A stretch of 64,000 bases of DNA. Origin: an uncultured virus (IMG/VR IMGVR_UViG_2643221571_000003). Taxonomy: Duplodnaviria > Heunggongvirae > Uroviricota > Caudoviricetes. The stretch's first letter is position 1. Each line of letters starts with the position of its first letter. The notes beneath the pieces are model-generated. The model was not told the origin of the DNA and did no database searches. It was given only the letters and a program-made list of their open reading frames with translations. The stretch is from positions 1-64,000 of IMG/VR virus record IMGVR_UViG_2643221571_000003; one strand, written 5' to 3'. Below, one piece after another: positions 1,111 through 25,292 of this stretch. The position numbers and the translations under genes were made by a program.

Positions 1111-1536
1111 ATGAGCTTCACCATTTTAGGTCCTATATCCGAAGGCGGCACGAAGCTGCCTTTCTGCTCGTTTCGTGTGCCCGCTGGCTTCCCGTCACCG
1201 GCGGCCGATCACATCGAGCAGCATATCTCATTGGATGAGGTCCTAAATATCAGGGCGCCGCACGTCTATCTCATCGCTATTACTGGAGAAAGCATGCAAG
1301 GGGCGGGAATTTTTGAGGGAGACCTGGCAGTTGTTGACCGGTCAATTGAGCCGGCCCACGGGCACGTCGTTGTCGCTCTTTTGAACAATGATCCCGTCTG
1401 TAAGCGACTGTGCAAGCGCGGGAAGGAGGTGATTCTCCTGTCAGAAAATCCGAAATACCCAGCGAGGTATGTTTTGGAGGGTGACGAGCTATCAATTTGG
1501 GGCGTGATTACCAGCACGGTGCGCAGTCATGTCTGA
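1111..1536 (+). CDS. umuD: UmuD/RulA S24 peptidase, DNA polymerase V subunit
   Basis: VPAGFPSPA cleavage motif, GESM catalytic Ser, VCKRL Lys. Confidence 0.95.
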   Translation: MSFTILGPISEGGTKLPFCSFRVPAGFPSPAADHIEQHISLDEVLNIRAPHVYLIAITGESMQGAGIFEGDLAVVDRSIEPAHGHVVVALLNNDPVCKRLCKRGKEVILLSENPKYPARYVLEGDELSIWGVITSTVRSHV

Positions 1537-2803
1537 CGCGCCAGTCTTTGCACTGATTGACTGCAATAGCTTCTATGCAAGTTGCGAGCGGGTCTTTCGA
1601 CCGGATCTGGCTAAGGTGCCCATCGTTGTATTGAGCAATAACGACGGTTGCGTCATCGCTCGCAGTTACGACGCCAAGCCGTTTATCAAGATGGGCGAGC
1701 CGTATTTCCAAATCAAACACAAGCTGAAGCAGCATGGCATCGTTCCTTTTTCATCCAACTACGCGCTCTATGGTGACATGAGCGAGCGAGTGATGACTCT
1801 GATCGAATCGATGGTTCCTGCCGTCGAGATTTACAGTATCGATGAGGCGTTTGCTGACCTATCGGGTATTCCCGAGCTGGATGCTTTGGGTCGTCAGATC
1901 CGGGAGCGGGTGCTGCGCTGCACTGGCATCCCCGTGGGGGTTGGAATAGCGAGCACCAAAACCTTGGCCAAGCTGGCCAACCACACGGCAAAGCGACTGC
2001 AAGCTCAGACAGGTGGCGTGGTGAACATCACCGATCCGGTCAAGCGCGATTGGGTACTGCGCAATACTGACGTCTGCGAAGTGTGGGGCGTGGGCCGCAA
2101 AATGAAACTCCACCTTGACGCAATGGGCATAAAATCAGCGATGGACCTCGCCAAGGCGGATCCTTGGACGCTGCGCAAGAAATTCAGCGTAGTGATCGAA
2201 AAGACGGCGCGTGAACTGGCCGGCACGTCGTGCCTGGAGCTGGACGATCCCGATGTGCCGAAGCAAGAAATCTGCTGTAGCCGCATGTTTGGCATGCGGC
2301 TGACCGAGCTGTCACCGATTAGGGAAGCGGTGGCCACCTACATGTTGCGAGCCTCGGAAAAGCTGCGTGCGCAAAAGTCACTCTGCAAGAAGGTCCGTGT
2401 CTGCATCCGAACCGGGATGTTCAACCCGCAAGAGGCGAAGTACGCCAACGGCGTGGTAGTCGATATGCCTTATCCCACCGACGACGTGCGCTTGCTCACA
2501 AAGGCCGCGGTTGATGCTCTGGATAAGATCTTCCGGCCAGGTTTCAAGTACAGCAAGGCTGAAGTGATGCTGCTAAACCTGTGCCAGCCAGGCGAATACA
2601 CCGACAATCTTTTCGCAATATCGCAGCCGACCGAGGCGACCCAGGTTATGGCTGTACTCGACCAGATCAACGAACGGTGGGGAAGGGGGACGCTGCGATC
2701 TGCTAGCGTGCCGACGAATCCCCTCTGGGGGATGCGCCGGGAAATGATGAGTCAGAGCTATACGACAAGGTTGGATCAGCTATGGTCGGTGTCTTGCAAG
2801 TAG
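1529..2803 (+). CDS. umuC: UmuC/RulB Y-family DNA polymerase
   Basis: LIDCNSFYASCE, SNNDGC and YSIDE motifs; C-terminal W-MRREMMS-YTT. Confidence 0.95.
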   Translation: MSDAPVFALIDCNSFYASCERVFRPDLAKVPIVVLSNNDGCVIARSYDAKPFIKMGEPYFQIKHKLKQHGIVPFSSNYALYGDMSERVMTLIESMVPAVEIYSIDEAFADLSGIPELDALGRQIRERVLRCTGIPVGVGIASTKTLAKLANHTAKRLQAQTGGVVNITDPVKRDWVLRNTDVCEVWGVGRKMKLHLDAMGIKSAMDLAKADPWTLRKKFSVVIEKTARELAGTSCLELDDPDVPKQEICCSRMFGMRLTELSPIREAVATYMLRASEKLRAQKSLCKKVRVCIRTGMFNPQEAKYANGVVVDMPYPTDDVRLLTKAAVDALDKIFRPGFKYSKAEVMLLNLCQPGEYTDNLFAISQPTEATQVMAVLDQINERWGRGTLRSASVPTNPLWGMRREMMSQSYTTRLDQLWSVSCK

Positions 2804-3015: not shown

Positions 3016-3098
3016 AATTCTGCACCGCTATGCGCTCTCTTAAGACACCTTGCAGCCCTTTGTTTTCAAGGGGGCGAAAATGATTGCGGTGCAGAATT
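3016..3098. repeat. 13-bp inverted repeat AATTCTGCACCGC, putative arm-type sites
   Basis: 3016-3028 and its reverse complement at 3086-3098, between att core and integrase. Confidence 0.6.
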
Positions 3099-4132
3099 CA
3101 CTTCGTCGGAGTGACCTTTTTGCCGATCCTTTTGCGGATGTAGTTCTCGGTCATGACCACGGTGGTGTGCCCGAGCTGATCACGTGCTTGCAAGATATCA
3201 CCGCTCGATTCTGCCTTGTCGGTACCGGCCTTAGCTCGCAAGTCGCGCATCTGAAAATCTCCTTTCTCAACACCGGCTGCTTCCCGGGCCGCGTCAAACC
3301 TCCCGCGCAACATGCTGCTGGTCATTGGCTGCCCGTTCTCCATAACGATGAGCCTGCTTGTCCTGATCTTGTGCCCATCCTTCCTGGCCATGATTCGATC
3401 AATCACAACCTTCAGCTCGCCCGTTATCTCAATCCTCCTTTTTGCATTCGTCTTACCTTGCTTCACGGACAGCCTGTTGTCGCGGATATCTCGCTCATCC
3501 ATTTTCAGGGTGTCAGCGATGCGCTGCCCGGTCAGGTAGAACAAATCGAGCGCGTCCCGTAGCGGTTGTTCAGCGTGCTGATAAACCAGGGCGAACATCT
3601 CGTCCTCGATGTACTGATCACGCCCGGACTCCTTGTGCCCCTTAACGCCGGCGCACGGGTTGGCCAGGGCCGTATAACCGCTGCTTCGGGCAAAGTTCCA
3701 GATGGCGCTGAGTAGAGCTTTCTCACGATTGGCGCGCACCGGAGCTGTCTTGCCGCGCTGCCGCAGGTATTGGACGACGTGTTGAGGCTCGATCGCCTCC
3801 AGCGGCGCGGGCGGATCATCGAAGAATTTCAGCAGCTGCTTCAGCTCCCGAGTGTTGTCCTTTTGAGTGGCCAAGCTCTTGGTAGGCACCACCTCATGCA
3901 TGTAGATGTTTGCCACGTAGGCAAAGGTCAGCACGTCTTGGGCCAGGGCCGAGGACGCGCGGCTCTTCTCAAGCTTTGCGTACTCCACGATAGCTATTCC
4001 ATAGTCGCTGCCCAGGGCAAGTTCCTTCCTCGGCGATCCCCCGAGGTCGTAGTAGTAATAGATAGTTCCGCTACGTTGCTTCCGCTTCCTTAAGCGCGTA
4101 ACGCTGTCAGGCTGTGTTGGTTTCCTTCCCAT
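3098..4132 (-). CDS. int: Tyrosine integrase
   Basis: TGQR, RDLRAK, LGH..MTENY catalytic motifs; adjacent to att. Confidence 0.95.
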   Translation of the reverse strand: MGRKPTQPDSVTRLRKRKQRSGTIYYYYDLGGSPRKELALGSDYGIAIVEYAKLEKSRASSALAQDVLTFAYVANIYMHEVVPTKSLATQKDNTRELKQLLKFFDDPPAPLEAIEPQHVVQYLRQRGKTAPVRANREKALLSAIWNFARSSGYTALANPCAGVKGHKESGRDQYIEDEMFALVYQHAEQPLRDALDLFYLTGQRIADTLKMDERDIRDNRLSVKQGKTNAKRRIEITGELKVVIDRIMARKDGHKIRTSRLIVMENGQPMTSSMLRGRFDAAREAAGVEKGDFQMRDLRAKAGTDKAESSGDILQARDQLGHTTVVMTENYIRKRIGKKVTPTK

Positions 4133-8138: not shown

Positions 8139-10304
8139 TTAAGCCGCTTCCGCCTGGCGTTCAGCCACTCGCCACGGGTCGTTGGCTCTGGCCAGCGCTG
8201 CCATAGGCGGAGGACTGACGCTGTTACCGCACATGTGCACCTGCTGGGTCTTGGTGAACGGCTTGCCGTCGGCGCCGTGGCTGATGATGTAGTCGGCCGG
8301 GAAGCCCTGGGCCTTGTACAGCTCGGCCGGCTTCAGCATCCGCAGGCAAATGTCGACGATAACGTAGGGCGTACCCTTCACCATCACGGTAACCATCGCC
8401 AGGCGGTCCTTGGTGGTGATGGTCGGCGCAGGCGAGTCGCAAGCGCTGATGTTCTCGGTGCCGTAGTAGCTGATCAGGAAGGCGGCGACGCGCAGGGCGC
8501 CCGCTTCATGCTCCGGCGACAGGGTGAGCGACACCAGCGAGCTCTTGCCACCGCCGCCGGCCGTGATCGTCGGCGCCGGATCATCCAAGCCCTGGCCAAC
8601 ACTGCCGCCGAATGCCCGCTCCATGAATGCGCAGACCAACCCGTGGTGCTGGCCGCCGGCGCTGACGGTGTGTAGCGGGTCGTTCACGTCCCGTGCATCA
8701 CAGTTGCCGCGCATGTGCACCAGGTGCGCTGTTGCCAGTTGCTGCTGGCTGCCGGTGTTGGTGACCGTGGTCATGGGTTCGTGCATGCCCTTGGCATGCG
8801 TGGTGTTGAATCCACCGTTCGCCTGGATCATCACCGCGGCGCTGACTGACTGTCCGCCGCCGCTGGCAGTGACGGTGCCGACCGGGCCGCAGATGTCGTT
8901 CACCCCGTGGGAGCGCCGCTTGTTTGCGCCGGAACCCTCACCATGCCCAGCTTGGACGATGCAGGCCGATGCGACCGCGCGGTGGCTATGGGTCATGAGC
9001 GTGCCGATGGGCTGATCTGCTGTTACCGGGTTTCCGGCGTACACCGGGCCACCGGCCCGCACCAAAATCGAGCTGGTCAGCGCATGCTTGACGCCGCCGG
9101 CGACCACGGTGCCTAGGGGTTGATCAAGGCCTGGCACCCGTGGTTCCTGTCCAGGGCGCTCGCCGTACCCCGACTGAATCAACGTAGGGCTGATCAAAGT
9201 TAGTTCACCGCGATTCGCGCAGGTCACCGTCGGCAGCGGCTCGAGCGGGTCATTGATGCGATCGCTGCCCTGGTGCGTCGCCGGGGCGATGGTCGGGCTC
9301 ACAACCGAGAAGGCGCCGCCCTTGGGGTAAGAGGTTACGGTGCGCTGCGGCTCGTCGGCCGACTGCACCGTTTCCCCTGACCAGTTGGCTATCGGCACAA
9401 TGAACGGCGCCGCGCTGTCGATGACAAACTTCTTCATGCCCTTGGCAACTCGGCGCAGGGTGGCCGGTGCCAGGTCCCTCTTGCGGCCAAAGATGCTTTT
9501 GCCCAGGTCGGTGAAGTCGATGCAGTCAGCGGCTGTTTTCCACTTCAGCTGTCCCTTGGCGGGGTTCTTGGCATGGGTTGGCTCGGGCCACACGATCGGC
9601 TGCCCGTCGCACCGGGCGATCATGAACAGGCGCTCCCGGCTGGTGGGCGCGCCGAAGTCGCATGCCCGAATCACTTTCCACTCAACGACATAGCCCATGC
9701 CTTCCAGCAAGGCCACGAATCGTCGCCAGGTCCGGCCGCGCTGCTTTGGATCAGGGATCAGGAATTGCTGGCCCACCGGCACGACTTCACCGGGTGCCGC
9801 AACGTCGCCGCCGAGTTTCACCACCCGGCCGGTGGCCTTGTCGCGCTTGGCGATCAGTCGGCCCCATTGCAGGATCTGCTTCACGTTCTCGAGGCTGATC
9901 ACCCGGGGCCGCTTCATGCCTGCCCACTTGAGCCCGATCCACGACAGGTTGCGGATCTCGCGCTTGCGCGGTTGACCACCGGCGGCCTGGGAGTGGTGCG
10001 TGCAGTCCGGCGACATGTGGAACCAGCCCACGGCCTTGCCGCCACACTCGGTGTCCGGGTCACCCTCGAAAACGTCGGTAGTGAAGTGCTGTGCGCCGGG
10101 GTGGTTCACTGTGTGCATGCTGATCGCTTGCGGGCTGTGGTTCTTCGCCACGTTCACCGTGCGGCCCAGGCCCATTTCCAGCCCGGTACCGGCGCCGCCG
10201 CCGCCACAAAAGAAGTCGACAACGATCTCATCGTCCTGAGGGTTGAAGCCGAGTCCGTATTGGGTTTTGAAATCGAAGGGCTGTGTTTTGTTTCGTGCGG
10301 ACAT
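8139..10304 (-). CDS. DNA cytosine-5 methyltransferase (orphan)
   Basis: DFFCGGGG motif I, SPDC motif IV, ENV motif VI, RERLF, GNSV motif X. Confidence 0.92.
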   Translation of the reverse strand: MSARNKTQPFDFKTQYGLGFNPQDDEIVVDFFCGGGGAGTGLEMGLGRTVNVAKNHSPQAISMHTVNHPGAQHFTTDVFEGDPDTECGGKAVGWFHMSPDCTHHSQAAGGQPRKREIRNLSWIGLKWAGMKRPRVISLENVKQILQWGRLIAKRDKATGRVVKLGGDVAAPGEVVPVGQQFLIPDPKQRGRTWRRFVALLEGMGYVVEWKVIRACDFGAPTSRERLFMIARCDGQPIVWPEPTHAKNPAKGQLKWKTAADCIDFTDLGKSIFGRKRDLAPATLRRVAKGMKKFVIDSAAPFIVPIANWSGETVQSADEPQRTVTSYPKGGAFSVVSPTIAPATHQGSDRINDPLEPLPTVTCANRGELTLISPTLIQSGYGERPGQEPRVPGLDQPLGTVVAGGVKHALTSSILVRAGGPVYAGNPVTADQPIGTLMTHSHRAVASACIVQAGHGEGSGANKRRSHGVNDICGPVGTVTASGGGQSVSAAVMIQANGGFNTTHAKGMHEPMTTVTNTGSQQQLATAHLVHMRGNCDARDVNDPLHTVSAGGQHHGLVCAFMERAFGGSVGQGLDDPAPTITAGGGGKSSLVSLTLSPEHEAGALRVAAFLISYYGTENISACDSPAPTITTKDRLAMVTVMVKGTPYVIVDICLRMLKPAELYKAQGFPADYIISHGADGKPFTKTQQVHMCGNSVSPPPMAALARANDPWRVAERQAEAA

Positions 10305-10371
10305 GGGGAATACTCGCCGGCGTAAAATAGCTACGGCATAATCATCTGGTGGATGAAGTCTGGAGAGTGCT

Positions 10372-11142
10372 TTGAAAAAAGATTGGGTAATCTGGGTTGG
10401 TTGTATTGGACTCTTTTTCGCTGGGGGCATTTATTTCAATATGCTCCCTCAATTGGTTTGGAAAAAAGACATTGGGATTAGTGATCTTGTAGCTGGAGCT
10501 TCAGCGGTAGCTGCTGCGTTCGCCGCGTTCGCGGCTTGGAAGTCTGCATTGATTTCAAGTGAAGCTGCGAGTGACAGTAGAGTGTTTTCTCGTATGCAGG
10601 CTTACATAATGCATAGACAACAGTTTGAGGCGTTGTTAACGCAAATGGAAAAGGAATTGTTGGTGCGATTTAAGGAGAAAGATAGATTGTATAATGATAT
10701 TTTTCCAAATAATCGTCACCTGAAACGTCCATTCAGCATGGAGGCTAATGGCGAAGAATTTAAGGCATGGTCAAGCTTTTTCAAAGAGTTGCTAGGTAAA
10801 ACGAATAAGTACCCTGCAATGGGCTTGAGAGAGCTAAAAACGTGGATGGTTGATCAGCTAATGCTTACGGGGAACTATCTGCGATTTGATTTTGATCTTG
10901 ATTCCGATATCGGCGTATTCATCATTGAAGGAATTAAAACTAGAGTGTCCATGGATGATCCGATGCTTTCGCTCAGGCTTGCGAGTAAAGTCATCAATCA
11001 CTTTTCTGTATTCGGAATGACGGATGCTTATCTAGGCATGTCATCGCCACCCGAGTACTTCGTCGACGCTCTCAAGGATCTTCAGCTCACAACATTTACA
11101 GGCGGAGGAGGATGTGAATATCGGGAGTTCGGCAAATCGTAG
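10372..11142 (+). CDS. Two-TM moron protein, candidate anti-phage membrane effector
   Basis: AT-rich; two N-terminal hydrophobic segments; Y-x2-H-x3-F...LY-x2-IFP-N motif. Confidence 0.65.
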   Translation: MKKDWVIWVGCIGLFFAGGIYFNMLPQLVWKKDIGISDLVAGASAVAAAFAAFAAWKSALISSEAASDSRVFSRMQAYIMHRQQFEALLTQMEKELLVRFKEKDRLYNDIFPNNRHLKRPFSMEANGEEFKAWSSFFKELLGKTNKYPAMGLRELKTWMVDQLMLTGNYLRFDFDLDSDIGVFIIEGIKTRVSMDDPMLSLRLASKVINHFSVFGMTDAYLGMSSPPEYFVDALKDLQLTTFTGGGGCEYREFGKS

Positions 11143-12527: not shown

Positions 12528-12737
12528 ATGGGAACCTCGTCGGCTGGCTTGATGTTGATTTTAGGAGTATNACCAGGCGGTGCGCATGCCCAGCGGGTGC
12601 ACGCTTGTGTCGCGGCCTTGATGCCGCTGCACACAGAACCGTATGTGATATCGGACATATGGGAACCTCGTCGGCTGGCTTGATGTTGATTTTAGGAGTA
12701 ATGGTATTTGAATAACTCATCCAGGCAGGAGGCCTAT

Positions 12738-16502: not shown

Positions 16503-17066
16503 TCACTTGATTCGGATCGAACTGTCGCCGCGCTCCAAGTGAGCCCAGGTAGGTTCGGGTAGAAGTTCGTGTTCAGCGTCTTCACCGGCTGCCACGCGCT
16601 TGCGCACCGCTTCGTTATGCTCGCGGATCTCCTTGAGCTTGGCGGCAATGGCCTTTTTGTCCGGAGCAATGCTCGACTTCACAGTGGTCAGCTCGTCCGG
16701 CACCGCATCTTCGTTGTCCACGATCACCCGTTCGCTGCCCATGGCCAGTGTGATGGTGAAGAGCGGACGCTTGATCGACTTGATGTTGGCTGCTTCCATG
16801 TTGCGGCGCAGGTAGTCGCTGATCTGCGACACGCTGTTGGATTTGATCCGCTTGAGTTCGGCCAAGCGCTCGATTTCGTTTTCGATGGCTGTCACGTCGC
16901 TTTCGATATTGCGGCGCAACATGACGATGTTGTCAGCCTTGATGTTGAAGTCGCCTTGGACCTCGTCCATTGCGTGCTGCAAGGCCTCCTTGAGCCCCTC
17001 ATCATCGGTGTCGGCCATGGCCTGAAGTTCGGCGAGTTTGCCGGTGAGTGCGTAGAGCTGAGTCAT
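16503..17066 (-). CDS. Siphovirus Gp157 family protein
   Basis: LYAL...KADNI...EIERL...DKKAI...SIRIK. Confidence 0.85.
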   Translation of the reverse strand: MTQLYALTGKLAELQAMADTDDEGLKEALQHAMDEVQGDFNIKADNIVMLRRNIESDVTAIENEIERLAELKRIKSNSVSQISDYLRRNMEAANIKSIKRPLFTITLAMGSERVIVDNEDAVPDELTTVKSSIAPDKKAIAAKLKEIREHNEAVRKRVAAGEDAEHELLPEPTWAHLERGDSSIRIK

Positions 17067-17806
17067 GCTGCTGCCTCCGTACCTTTTTCAAGGTCAACTT
17101 TGCGCTCTTCGAATGCTCGAGTGATTCGCGCTATGAAAGTGGGCTCATTGCGGCGAGTTGCCTCGCGAATGTATTTCACGTTCAGAAGCTTGAGTTCGTG
17201 TGTAGTGACAGCCTTGCCGATGGTCTCGACCGCGGAAGCAAGCCACTCGACACGCTCTTGTTTTTGGCGAAGTATCTCGGCGTCCTTGTCCTCGGCCTTT
17301 TCAAGCTTGAACTCTTCGGTGATGGTGTCGACGTAGGTCGGATCGTCGAACATGCCCATGTAGATGTCGGCGGCAAACCCCAGGGGCTGCAGGCATTTAC
17401 CGATAGCGTCGGTCAGCGATTTTTTCGCCGCGTCCCAGTCGGTAAGGATTTTTCCCTGCTGCAGGTAGATAAATGGCGTATGGCCGTAGTGCTGAACCGT
17501 GCATTTCTGCCCAGCGTTGCCCAAGTACCAAAGTTCGATTTTTACGGTGTGTAGCTTCGCGCAGATCATCGGAGCCTCTGGCCACTCTTTCGTGGGCCCC
17601 TGGAGCGGTGCACCTTCGTCAAATCGATCCTCAAGGACGTTCCAACCCCAACCCTCACCACATGGGCCGAAAATTTCGGTCGCCTTGCGCATGAGATAGG
17701 TTGGCCTGATCGCAGTGCCCTTAAAACCACCTGCGCCAGTGTATTTTTTAGTCGCATCAGGGTCGGTCGTGTCGACCTGGTCCCAAATTCGCGTGTTTGT
17801 GGCCAT
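17063..17806 (-). CDS. Rad52/Sak-like single-strand annealing recombinase
   Basis: ATEIFGPCGEGWGW, KKSLTDAIGK...GFAADIY. Confidence 0.75.
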   Translation of the reverse strand: MATNTRIWDQVDTTDPDATKKYTGAGGFKGTAIRPTYLMRKATEIFGPCGEGWGWNVLEDRFDEGAPLQGPTKEWPEAPMICAKLHTVKIELWYLGNAGQKCTVQHYGHTPFIYLQQGKILTDWDAAKKSLTDAIGKCLQPLGFAADIYMGMFDDPTYVDTITEEFKLEKAEDKDAEILRQKQERVEWLASAVETIGKAVTTHELKLLNVKYIREATRRNEPTFIARITRAFEERKVDLEKGTEAAA

Positions 17807-17856
17807 GAGAAATCCTTGCCGCGACGATCGCAGCAGTGAGTAGGGGGAGGGAAATA

Positions 17857-17905
17857 AAAGTTGATAAACATTCTTATTCGTATTTAAGATACGTAATAAC
17901 ATTTC
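17857..17905. promoter_or_regulatory. Putative Fur-like box and Zur half-site upstream of ykgO
   Basis: TTGATAAACATTCTTAT (Fur-like); AATAACATTTC matches 10/11 of the Zur half-site TATAACATTTC. Confidence 0.4.
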
Positions 17906-17929
17906 AACTCATCGCAAGGAGCCTCACCT

Positions 17930-18085
17930 ATGAAAGTGCTGTCCTCACTCAAAGAAGCTAAAAACCGTCACCGTGACTGCCAGATCGTTATGCGCCGGGG
18001 CCGGATCTACGTGATCTGCAAATCCAATCCAAAATTCAAAGCGCGGCAGGGCAGTGCGAAGAACAAGAACAAGGGGAAAGGCTGA
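17930..18085 (+). CDS. ykgO: 50S ribosomal protein L36, type B (zinc-independent)
   Basis: Hand translation [60 protein letters not shown]; below the ORF-track cutoff. Confidence 0.93.
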
Positions 18086-18097
18086 TCAGTTTGCTTG

Positions 18098-18289
18098 CTA
18101 ATCCTGCTGCTGAACCCGGTAGCGCAGGACCTGGAGCACTCGACCGCCGTAGCCAGGTTCTGCGAATTGCTCAACCGGTGGACCGAAGAAACCACGTCGT
18201 TCGGCCAGGCTGTAGGCCTCGCGCAGGTTGTGAGCGCTAATATCTTCGAGCTGCTCGTCGATCAGGGATTTAACCGGTGCGGTGCTCAT
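18098..18289 (-). CDS. Phage hypothetical protein
   Basis: MSTAPVKSLIDEQLEDI; coupled to upstream ORF. Confidence 0.6.
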   Translation of the reverse strand: MSTAPVKSLIDEQLEDISAHNLREAYSLAERRGFFGPPVEQFAEPGYGGRVLQVLRYRVQQQD

Positions 18290-18477
18290 TGAATCTCCTT
18301 ACGCCGCCGGCTGACATCCAGTAGACGGGCGCTATACCAGTGGAATTCTTCTGCGTTGATGGCGCCCGAAGTAAAGTGTCGGACGATCAAACCCTCGGCT
18401 AGGATCTCGTCGAGCGCTGGCTTGTCTGGATCTTCAAGCGCAAACAACGCTTTATCGATCTCAACGTAGGGGCTCAC
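18286..18477 (-). CDS. Phage hypothetical protein
   Basis: 4-bp overlaps with both neighbours. Confidence 0.6.
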   Translation of the reverse strand: MSPYVEIDKALFALEDPDKPALDEILAEGLIVRHFTSGAINAEEFHWYSARLLDVSRRRKEIQ

Positions 18478-18896
18478 AGTTCGTTGTCCTCGGCCTGGGC
18501 GATAAGAGCGTCATCAGCCAAAGGTTGAAGGAGGCGTTCGGCAATCTCGCCGAGCTTCCCAAGTTGGTGGTCACTCCGGCCAAGCAGCTCCAGTGCTTCC
18601 GATTTCACCCTCGAACCCGCCATCCCTGCGATCAGTAAGTAGCCCAGGACTGGAGTGTCGACGCCGCAGTCAGCAAGTAGGTTGTTGGCGTACTCATCGA
18701 CAGCCAGTGCGAACTGGTAGGCCGTGACGCCTTGCTGGGGGTGCAAGTGGCGCTTGAACATCACGCTTCCACCTCTGGCTAGCTCTTCGGCTGCGTTGTA
18801 CAGCCATTCGCTGCGAGCCAATTGCTGAGAGGTTTCGCTCACCGGAGGCGGCAGTTGTTCGTCGTGCTCAAACTGAGCCTTGCGTAGTGCTGACAT
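18474..18896 (-). CDS. Phage hypothetical protein
   Basis: GGAGG RBS; MSALRKAQFEHD. Confidence 0.65.
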   Translation of the reverse strand: MSALRKAQFEHDEQLPPPVSETSQQLARSEWLYNAAEELARGGSVMFKRHLHPQQGVTAYQFALAVDEYANNLLADCGVDTPVLGYLLIAGMAGSRVKSEALELLGRSDHQLGKLGEIAERLLQPLADDALIAQAEDNEL

Positions 18897-19372
18897 GGTC
18901 GCCTCCAAAATGGCGGGTTGTTCACCTGTATTCGTCAACACTCATGCCTCCCGCTGGTTGCCGATGGGCGCGGGGGAGGAGTGCTGACGGGTAGAGGCGG
19001 GATAAAGAAAGGCCAGTTGGACGCTGGCCTCTCGGATGCAGTAGTTGATTTTGGGGGCGGGACCGTCAGCGTCAGAACGCCGAGAGCCCCGGTCGAGAAC
19101 GCCAGCGCTCACGATGGAAGCGCAAGTGACCGGTTGGCAGGCCGTCATCAGGTGGCGGTTCTGGCCGCGCATGCCTGAGCGCTGCGCCGATCAGGAACAG
19201 TAGGAGCATGGTGATCTCCAGTTGGGGTGTGTGTCGGTCTTTCCCGACTGTCACGGCGCTTGTGCCAGATCAAGGTAGCTCGCCAATACCAGGTTGGCGC
19301 TGACCCTGCGCAATGCGGGTTGAACTATTCGCCGAGTGATGCAGGTGGGCGGTTATAGGCCGCAGTTTCGTC

Positions 19373-24568: not shown

Positions 24569-25213
24569 TCAGTAAAACTTCTGCAACGCCTGCACAACCA
24601 CGCCCACGATCCGGCAGTTCTCGTCGACAGCCTCGATGGGGTAGCTCGGGTTCAGCGGTTTCAGGAACAGCCGCCCGCCATCGCTGACCAGCTTCTTGAA
24701 TGTCGCTTCGTTGCTGTCTGGCAGCTTGGCAACGACCAGCTTACCTGGTGCAACTTCAGCCTCAGTGTCCACAAGGATCAGCGTGCCTTCGGTGATGCTC
24801 TGGCCGGCGGGTGCCGTCATCGAGTCACCTTTCACCTTCAGCCAAAACGCGGTGCCCTTGGAGTCGTACTCCGAGAACTCATAGCTGTCCGAGAATCCAG
24901 CTGGGTATGGCTCAACGGCCTCCGCCCAGGCGCCGGCGGCGACCCAGCTGATTACTGGGTAGCGGAATGATTTGGTGGGTTGGGCGGCGATTGAAATATT
25001 CGAGGGGCTTTCGCCAGGCAAAAGCAGCGCTGCCGGATCGATTTTCAGTTCATGGGCAATCTTGGCGATATCGTCAAGGTTTGGCTCCCGAGCATCTTTT
25101 TCATAGTTTCCTATGCGCGATTGGGATTTCCACCCGCACGCCTTTGCTAAGGCAGCCTGAGAAAGCCCTGCTTTTTCTCTGTAGTGAGCGATGCGCGATC
25201 CGAGTGTCTTCAT
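24569..25213 (-). CDS. cI: CI repressor (HTH + S24 peptidase)
   Basis: HTH SQAALAKACGW-SQSRIGNYE; VAAG cleavage site, GDSM, TFKKL. Confidence 0.95.
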   Translation of the reverse strand: MKTLGSRIAHYREKAGLSQAALAKACGWKSQSRIGNYEKDAREPNLDDIAKIAHELKIDPAALLLPGESPSNISIAAQPTKSFRYPVISWVAAGAWAEAVEPYPAGFSDSYEFSEYDSKGTAFWLKVKGDSMTAPAGQSITEGTLILVDTEAEVAPGKLVVAKLPDSNEATFKKLVSDGGRLFLKPLNPSYPIEAVDENCRIVGVVVQALQKFY

Positions 25214-25226
25214 GGATCGAATTTTA

Positions 25227-25292
25227 ATCACGGAGTGAAATAAATTCCGCACACTTATTGTGTTTGCCAATAACACGCTATGTGTTTATCCT
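25227..25292. promoter_or_regulatory. OR operators and pR
   Basis: 15-bp sites at 25227 (degenerate), 25250 and 25272 matching the OL consensus; TTGCCA-17-TATCCT. Confidence 0.8.

Follow-up and report, generated by a model that had tools for sequence, protein, structure and literature searches.

The locus described here raises the question of what a gene for a zinc-independent ribosomal protein, standing alone and antisense to the early genes of a temperate phage, contributes to its host, and which signal would switch it on. It lies in a provirus from IMG/VR (IMGVR_UViG_2643221571_000003; 70,260 b, rated complete), the first 64 kb of which form the window, that is, the whole stretch of 64,000 nt that was analysed. 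By PHROG annotation the layout is lambdoid, with an integrase gene at 3098-4132 (-), a CI-like repressor gene at 24569-25273 (-) and an early-left leftward block that includes genes for a DNA methyltransferase, an HNH nuclease, a Gam-like protein (16503-17066) and an exonuclease, as well as small genes at 18098-18941; further PHROG calls comprise CII-like, Ant-like, O-like, NinB and NinG proteins, terminase, portal and head proteins, a tape measure protein, a J-type fibre, an endolysin and a spanin. The methyltransferase gene of the early-left block (8139-10430, -) encodes 763 aa; genes for UmuD-like and DNA-polymerase (UmuC-type, phrog_1268) proteins at 1111-2803 (+), immediately beyond the integrase gene, belong either to the host flank or to the cargo of the phage, and the record has a single N at 12571.

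The ribosomal protein gene is found on the plus strand, and the genes on both sides of it are on the minus strand (Table 1), as a sequence-only reading had proposed when it placed the gene antisense within the early operon. We consider it reasonably probable that this gene, with its control region, is a moron-like L36-B cassette that is repressed by Zur, de-repressed on zinc starvation and active in lysogenic conversion.

Table 1. Positions in the window of the L36-B cassette, its predicted elements and the two adjoining genes.
Feature	Position	Strand	Basis
Left neighbour, phrog_7838 'exonuclease', first gene of the recombination module	17063..17806	-	PHROG
Whole L36-B cassette (promoter, operator, RBS, gene), ~226 bp	17860..18085	+	alignment of copies, GC
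-35-like hexamer TTGATA	17861..17866	+	promoter scan
-10-like hexamer TAAGAT	17885..17890	+	promoter scan
Predicted Zur box 1, AAGATACGTAATAACAT, overlaps the -10 hexamer	17886..17902	.	Zur matrix, 15.3 bits
Predicted Zur box 2, ACGTAATAACATTTCAA, 5 bp downstream of box 1	17891..17907	.	Zur matrix, 16.2 bits
RBS AAGGAG, 8 nt before the ATG	17916..17921	+	read off the sequence
Type-B (zinc-independent) bL36, 51 aa	17930..18085	+	open frame; Pfam and NCBIfam matches
Right neighbour, phrog_9431, small early gene, convergent with L36-B, 12-bp gap	18098..18289	-	PHROG

The L36-B gene is a 51-codon open reading frame that is present in the mechanical ORF listing of the window. Its product scored 65.9 bits against the Pfam model Ribosomal_L36 (cut-off 26.1) and 87.6 bits against NCBIfam NF002021, 'type B 50S ribosomal protein L36' (cut-off 70), where the match spans model positions 1-41 of 41, and just 36 bits against the general L36 model TIGR01022. 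When aligned to the zinc-ribbon (C+) L36 of the host genome G266, the phage protein has a 3-residue insertion and carries H14, C17, C30 and F36 at the zinc-ligand positions; two of the four ligands are therefore retained, and the CxxC...C...H zinc ribbon of the C+ form is lost. The family matches and the ligand alignment thus bear out the earlier call of an intact 51-aa YkgO-type L36, and the good ribosome binding site assigned to it is indeed present. Residues 1-44 align to 'L36 2' of the solved E. coli ribosome (6i7v chain C5, E 2.9e-17), a similarity which suggests that the phage protein may be a constituent of the 50S subunit. No PHROGs family was found for the protein at E ≤ 1e-5, and the exact 51-aa sequence is on record from 253 contigs.

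A scan of IMG/VR returned 22 L36-B loci. In 21 of these the setting is the same and the protein at least 96% identical; the remaining one, at 63% identity, is on a 328-kb contig. All 21 close phage copies are open, 19 of them at 51 aa, one at 53 aa with an extra KN repeat and one with a replaced C-terminal tail. Over the 41-codon core the 22 phage copies comprise 21 distinct DNA sequences, with 28 of the 34 variable sites at third codon positions. The mean dN is 0.012 and the mean dS 0.376, and a dN/dS of only ∼0.03 means that selection acts on the protein sequence itself; purifying selection on the phage L36-B is strong, and the concern that phage homologues might mostly be decaying proved unfounded. 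Among 50,697 GenBank phage records a relative (61% identity) was found in two only, both of which belong to one 735-kb uncultured phage. The Lys/Asn-rich tail of the protein (window 18062-18082) differs by short repeats, as in L020, where the 53 aa result from one further KN unit, and this variation suggests slippage.

The extent of the cassette was read from an alignment with 15 phage and chromosomal copies, in which similarity begins at GTTGATAA, in the -35 region, and ends at the stop codon, with unrelated flanks. These bounds indicate that the mobile unit consists of promoter, operator, RBS and gene, ∼226 bp in all. Base composition changes in the same region, with a GC content of 0.46-0.505 over 17700-18099 compared with 0.55-0.60 in both flanks, and the sign of the AT skew is reversed there. 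A single sigma-70-like site was detected in 17600-18400, formed by the two hexamers of Table 1 with an 18-nt spacer (9 of 12 matches; shuffles average 0.4), and its -35-like TTGATA is common to the aligned phage and chromosomal copies. No terminator-like site was found in 17600-18400, the gap between L36-B and the phrog_9431 gene included, and the RNA fold of 18060-18140, downstream of L36-B, was not above shuffles (z = 0.99). Between the exonuclease start codon and the cassette an inverted-repeat-like GCCGCGA..TCGCAGC was seen by eye at 17818-17834; it is kept in nearly all cassette-bearing proviruses, regardless of the family of the left neighbour.

Left neighbours were compared for 23 copies, namely that of the window, those of 20 of the 21 IMG/VR proviruses (L010 begins too near the cassette) and two from species genomes; PHROGs were run on the window's neighbour and on five representatives, and the others were grouped by length and N-terminal sequence. 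On this basis the neighbour is the phrog_7838 'exonuclease' in 11 copies, the phrog_2449 single-strand annealing protein in eight and phrog_1376, of unknown function, in four, so the cassette persists beside three unrelated families and at the same module boundary each time. Conversely, 41 IMG/VR loci with a relative of the window's exonuclease-like protein include four with an intact cassette, four with a decayed 3′ remnant and 33 with nothing recognisable. The remnants (L121, L126, L130 and L142) are without the promoter and about the first third to half of the gene, and indicate that this junction once held the cassette and later lost it. Four remnants and 33 loci without the cassette indicate that it is dispensable for the phage and is optional cargo.

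Other features of the junction were observed in the same loci. The four remnants sit between exonuclease-like and phrog_9431-like genes and are ∼75% identical, with indels and stops. Where the exonuclease relatives are closest (97% protein identity), the junction holds ∼1.4 kb of other DNA (L104-L115 and others, e.g. L107 1054-2501), including a 364-aa ORF that has no Pfam match and directly adjoins the exonuclease gene. The junction between the exonuclease and phrog_9431 genes looks like a hot spot of module exchange.

Lambdoid morons are independently transcribed cargo genes that are expressed from the prophage. The cassette resembles them in having its own promoter, in lying between conserved phage genes, in its patchy presence at a fixed junction among close relatives and in its lower GC content. 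It differs in that no terminator of its own was detected and in that it is placed convergently inside the early-left operon and not in the late region.

Control by Zur was assessed with a symmetrised weight matrix made from nine P. aeruginosa PAO1 Zur sites (Pederick et al. 2015, Suppl. Table S1, PMC4542158). The two boxes listed in Table 1 are the two best matches in the 64-kb window and the only ones of at least 10 bits, the next best, elsewhere, reaching 9.4 bits. True PAO1 Zur sites, scored by leave-one-out, gave 13.0-27.3 bits, with the boxes of the window in the lower half of this range. First-order Markov simulations of 64 kb produced on average 0.073 matches of at least 15 bits, and 3% of the simulations reached 16.2 bits; when the AT-rich 123-bp intergenic region was shuffled, 15.3 bits was reached in 36 of 20,000 cases. 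What had earlier been taken for a near-perfect Zur half-site is upheld as a Zur element, but as two overlapping full 17-bp boxes and not as a half-site. The boxes overlap the -10 hexamer, as expected of the Pseudomonas Zur regulon, whose boxes are described in a review (PMC10393844) as 17-bp palindromes that often overlap this hexamer. A degenerate Pseudomonas Zur consensus, GWWAYWNNNTWHCR, was rejected as sole evidence: it matches 17893-17906, but has 4 matches in the window against 2.05 expected, and at least 4 were found in 16 of 100 shuffles. Since this consensus is uninformative alone, the matrix test was used instead.

The operator is conserved by position. In all 21 related proviruses the best Zur-matrix match of the ∼6-kb locus, at 16.2-19.4 bits, lies at -39 or -44 from the ATG, and this position is kept while the spelling of the operator varies and even includes the central 12-mer as its reverse complement. 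As a control, ykgM-ykgO operons were taken from Vibrio, Photobacterium, Alteromonas, Ferrimonas, Rheinheimera and Ectopseudomonas, and 11 of 11 had a match of 15.0-27.8 bits upstream of the L31-B gene (ykgM); double boxes 5 bp apart also occur at the ykgM promoters of Vibrio, Alteromonas and Photobacterium. No match above 11 bits was found for the L36 genes of Xanthomonadales-type and Verrucomicrobia genomes. Judging from the matrix matches, Zur probably binds the two boxes of the phage cassette and releases the promoter under low zinc.

The nearest chromosomal genes encode stand-alone Pseudomonas L36-B proteins of 49 aa that are 91-94% identical to the phage protein. At three such loci (L024, L026 and L030) the neighbourhood is not that of a phage, and L36-B is found among genes for a TPM-domain protein, a LysR regulator and a cupin. 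The group includes the C- L36 of Pseudomonas protegens/fluorescens Pf-5 (RL36_PSEF5, PFL_3806; P0136), which is 92% identical to the phage protein and itself identical to the proteins of L148 and L149, two loci that share the promoter architecture of the phage cassette. Pf-5 and its 49-aa relatives have the same TTGATAA, TAAGAT and AAGGAG elements and a Zur box at -41 to -46. They differ in being chromosomal and shorter, since a 6-nt duplication has added KG to the phage form (KGKG), and the synonymous divergence of the Pf-5 type from the window is at least 0.76. In a maximum-likelihood tree of the 123-nt core, 24 of the 25 phage-type alleles form one clade (98/96), with L019 just outside; the tree indicated neither a donor lineage nor a direction of transfer, its deeper forks being open. 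Nested inside the phage clade is the copy of G217 (L160), which lies between genes for an ABC-F ATPase and an MFS transporter and not in a prophage, and the cassette is therefore not strictly phage-specific.

The distribution of both type-B proteins was surveyed in 401 species-representative genomes, one per species, of the genus that holds P. morbosilactucae. A type-B L36 above the family cut-off was present in 28 of them and a type-B L31 (L31-B query, E ≤ 1e-20) in 119; 27 of the 28 genomes with L36-B also have L31-B, the exception being G399, compared with 92 of the other 373 (Fisher p = 1.2e-14). L36-B is rare in the genus, and its co-occurrence with L31-B is near-obligate. A review (PMC10393844) describes RpmJ2 as mostly confined to the aeruginosa group and the syringae group as having RpmE2 only. 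The 27 L36-B loci fetched from the genus, which comprise the 49-aa type, an MQV type of 42-48 aa, three classical L31-B/L36-B operons and three copies of the phage allele, all have an upstream Zur-matrix match of 14.2-24.1 bits.

Two of the phage-allele copies, in G121 and G266, have phage genes alongside, and the third is that of G217, without a prophage. In all three genomes the phage allele is the only type-B L36, and each carries a gene for a cysteine-free 90-aa L31-B that is followed by hairpins with no L36 gene behind it. A Zur box accompanies this L31-B gene in G266 (17.8 bits) and G217 (21.1 bits), and in G121 the same box is cut by the chosen start codon. The earlier statement that the phage gene is not paired with ykgM is accurate in cis, no L31 gene adjoining L36-B in the window, whereas in a ykgM-ykgO operon L36-B lies directly behind L31-B; it does not extend to trans, as an orphan L31-B is present in all three sampled genomes that have the phage allele. 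Thirty-one genomes have an L31-B with at least 93% identity to the G266 protein, and of these only G121, G266 and G217 have L36-B. The zinc-ribbon L36 is also present in G266 and G217, and no C+ L36 gene was found in G121, a fragmented assembly.

From the gene identity, the cassette boundaries, the conserved promoter and operator matches, the purifying selection and the genome distribution, all of which are observed, we infer Zur binding, induction, entry into the ribosome and a fitness benefit as parts of one mechanism. A moron-like cassette of ∼226 bp in the early-left region of a temperate lambdoid Pseudomonas phage would encode a functional type-B bL36. In a zinc-replete lysogen the zinc-loaded Zur dimer of the host would occupy the two overlapping boxes, over the -10 hexamer and start region, and keep the gene off; when zinc is scarce Zur would leave, the sigma-70 promoter would fire and L36-B would be made. 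The new protein would then replace the zinc-ribbon L36 in new 50S subunits, a replacement that might spare zinc or sustain ribosome assembly; that C- ribosomal paralogues serve to spare zinc is described as a matter of debate in a review (PMC10393844). As most species of the genus are without L36-B and many have an orphan L31-B, the prophage would supply the missing half of the zinc-independent L31/L36 pair, a form of lysogenic conversion. Lysogens thus probably acquire a back-up ribosomal component whose expression starts once zinc is exhausted.

Iron, acting through Fur, might control the cassette together with zinc or in its place; the conserved TTGATAA...TTC at the -35 hexamer would then be a Fur site. 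We hold such dual metal control to be possible but on balance doubtful. Its appeal derives from the Pf-5 gene PFL_3806, which is reported to be induced under iron limitation (log2 3.20 and 2.67) and to have a putative Fur site upstream (Lim et al. 2012, PMC3377617), and whose product is also that of L148 and L149, with their phage-like promoter architecture. Fur control is thus possible, with this report as its only support. The sequence-only reading had likewise named a Fur-like box, and the best matches to the classical 19-bp Fur consensus, at 17857 and 17863, agree at 12 of 19 positions; this level is reached by 26 19-mers of the window and by 7 of 2,179 AT-rich 19-mers, so the match is no better than chance and no box stands clearly above background. 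The conserved letters are those of the -35 hexamer, moreover, and the right half of the palindrome differs among copies. Since iron salts can bring trace zinc, the Pf-5 iron response may be an indirect effect of Zur.

L36 is a buried ribosomal protein of late assembly, and it seems very unlikely that L36-B is made in infection to modify host ribosomes for phage translation, a role proposed for other ribosomal proteins of viruses. There are documented cases of viral ribosomal proteins that evolve under purifying selection, and bS21 and bL12 have been shown to enter ribosomes, but L36 is not among the readily exchangeable proteins that are stressed in the same study (PMC6375957). The phage L36-B is under purifying selection as well, and yet its gene is antisense to the early operon, with its own promoter under what is predicted to be a host repressor site, and the identical cassette serves as a chromosomal gene. 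That the cassette is mainly a regulatory device, with a Zur-gated promoter firing into the early-left genes to tune induction or excision when metals are scarce and with the protein secondary, is also quite unlikely. Its constant place at one module boundary would suit such a device, and as just 12 bp separate L36-B from the convergent gene and no terminator was found, read-through would be antisense to the genes at 18098-18941 and beyond; the dN/dS value, however, points to selection on the protein sequence, and the chromosomal copies have no phage genes to control. A combined metal-sensing switch, in which zinc (perhaps iron) starvation would lead both to an L36-B that completes the host's L31-B set and to antisense transcription into the early-left genes, thereby coupling metal status to the prophage/induction decision, is an unlikely extension. 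The view that the cassette is a neutral passenger, acquired by illegitimate recombination and now decaying, is disfavoured and in our judgement most improbable: the four remnants without promoter and 5′ part of the gene, and the 33 cassette-free proviruses among the 41 whose left-neighbour gene is related, would fit it, but every one of the 21 close phage copies is open, with dS far above dN, and the operator is kept in all 21 proviruses.

The preferred reading, of a Zur-repressed cargo cassette, was compared with known systems. The rpmE2-rpmJ2 genes of P. aeruginosa (PA3601-PA3600) and the ykgM-ykgO operons also have a type-B L36 under a Zur box, and PA3600 is reported to rise 89-fold under zinc depletion (PMC4542158). 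There, however, L36-B follows L31-B as second gene, with the box upstream of L31-B, whereas the phage L36-B is alone, with its own promoter, in a prophage. Like the phage gene, the virus-encoded ribosomal protein genes described by Mizuno et al. (2019, PMC6375957) are host-acquired, reside in viral genomes and are under purifying selection; those genes are thought to be active in infection, whereas the predicted operator for a host metal sensor fits expression of L36-B from the prophage. The main text of PMC6375957 does not mention bL36, whose Pfam model appears solely among the profiles searched. No report of a phage-borne bL36 or of a Zur-controlled prophage cargo gene was found in the searchable full-text literature, outside which most subscription journals lie. 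The cassette unites three kinds of element that are known separately, namely a ribosomal paralogue of the C- form, a predicted member of the Zur regulon and a phage moron.

Viral ribosomal proteins have so far been discussed as tools of the lytic cycle, and the cassette points to a different logic, in which a temperate phage would bring a stress-specific ribosomal paralogue, wired to the host's zinc sensor, to hosts that are mostly without L36-B and often have L31-B. If confirmed, this would be a clear and easily tested case in which lysogenic conversion acts on metal economy and on the composition of the ribosome. A lysogen compared with its cassette deletion, in a host whose L31-B is an orphan, would moreover serve as a natural system for the contribution of type-B L36 itself, which is debated in the literature.

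Contigs that cover the locus were found in a few public libraries. In RNA libraries X1 and X2, from one sample, one 4,158-nt contig, which belongs to a relative, extends from the exonuclease gene across L36-B into early genes; the contig may be DNA-derived and gives neither strand nor level. A wastewater cDNA run (X7) has a higher summed contig depth over L36-B, a sum that includes some contigs from other contexts and likewise carries no strand or level, and one loose contig end lies at 17927 with different upstream sequence.

Several other L36-B loci were seen in the course of this work. A second stand-alone type, present in Pseudomonas genomes (L154-L158, L161-L167 and L171), begins with MQV and comprises 42-48 aa. 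Its promoter, an unrelated one, includes a conserved GAATGATT..GCGTTA element, and its Zur-matrix matches score 14.2-24.1 bits, most of them no more than 40 nt from the start codon. Two copies of this type are present on one contig of G200, one with an altered C-terminus. In Thauera butanivorans (L027) an L36-B, also unpaired, is part of a zinc-economy cluster with genes for a Fur-family domain protein, a CobW/COG0523 protein and a TonB-dependent receptor. The L31-B match at L181, in the P. morbosilactucae genome G002, covers model positions 1-47 of 65 within a 192-aa frame whose translation diverges from the family beyond about residue 85; the gene, in a genome that has a stand-alone L36-B, may represent a frameshift or a fusion of L31-B.
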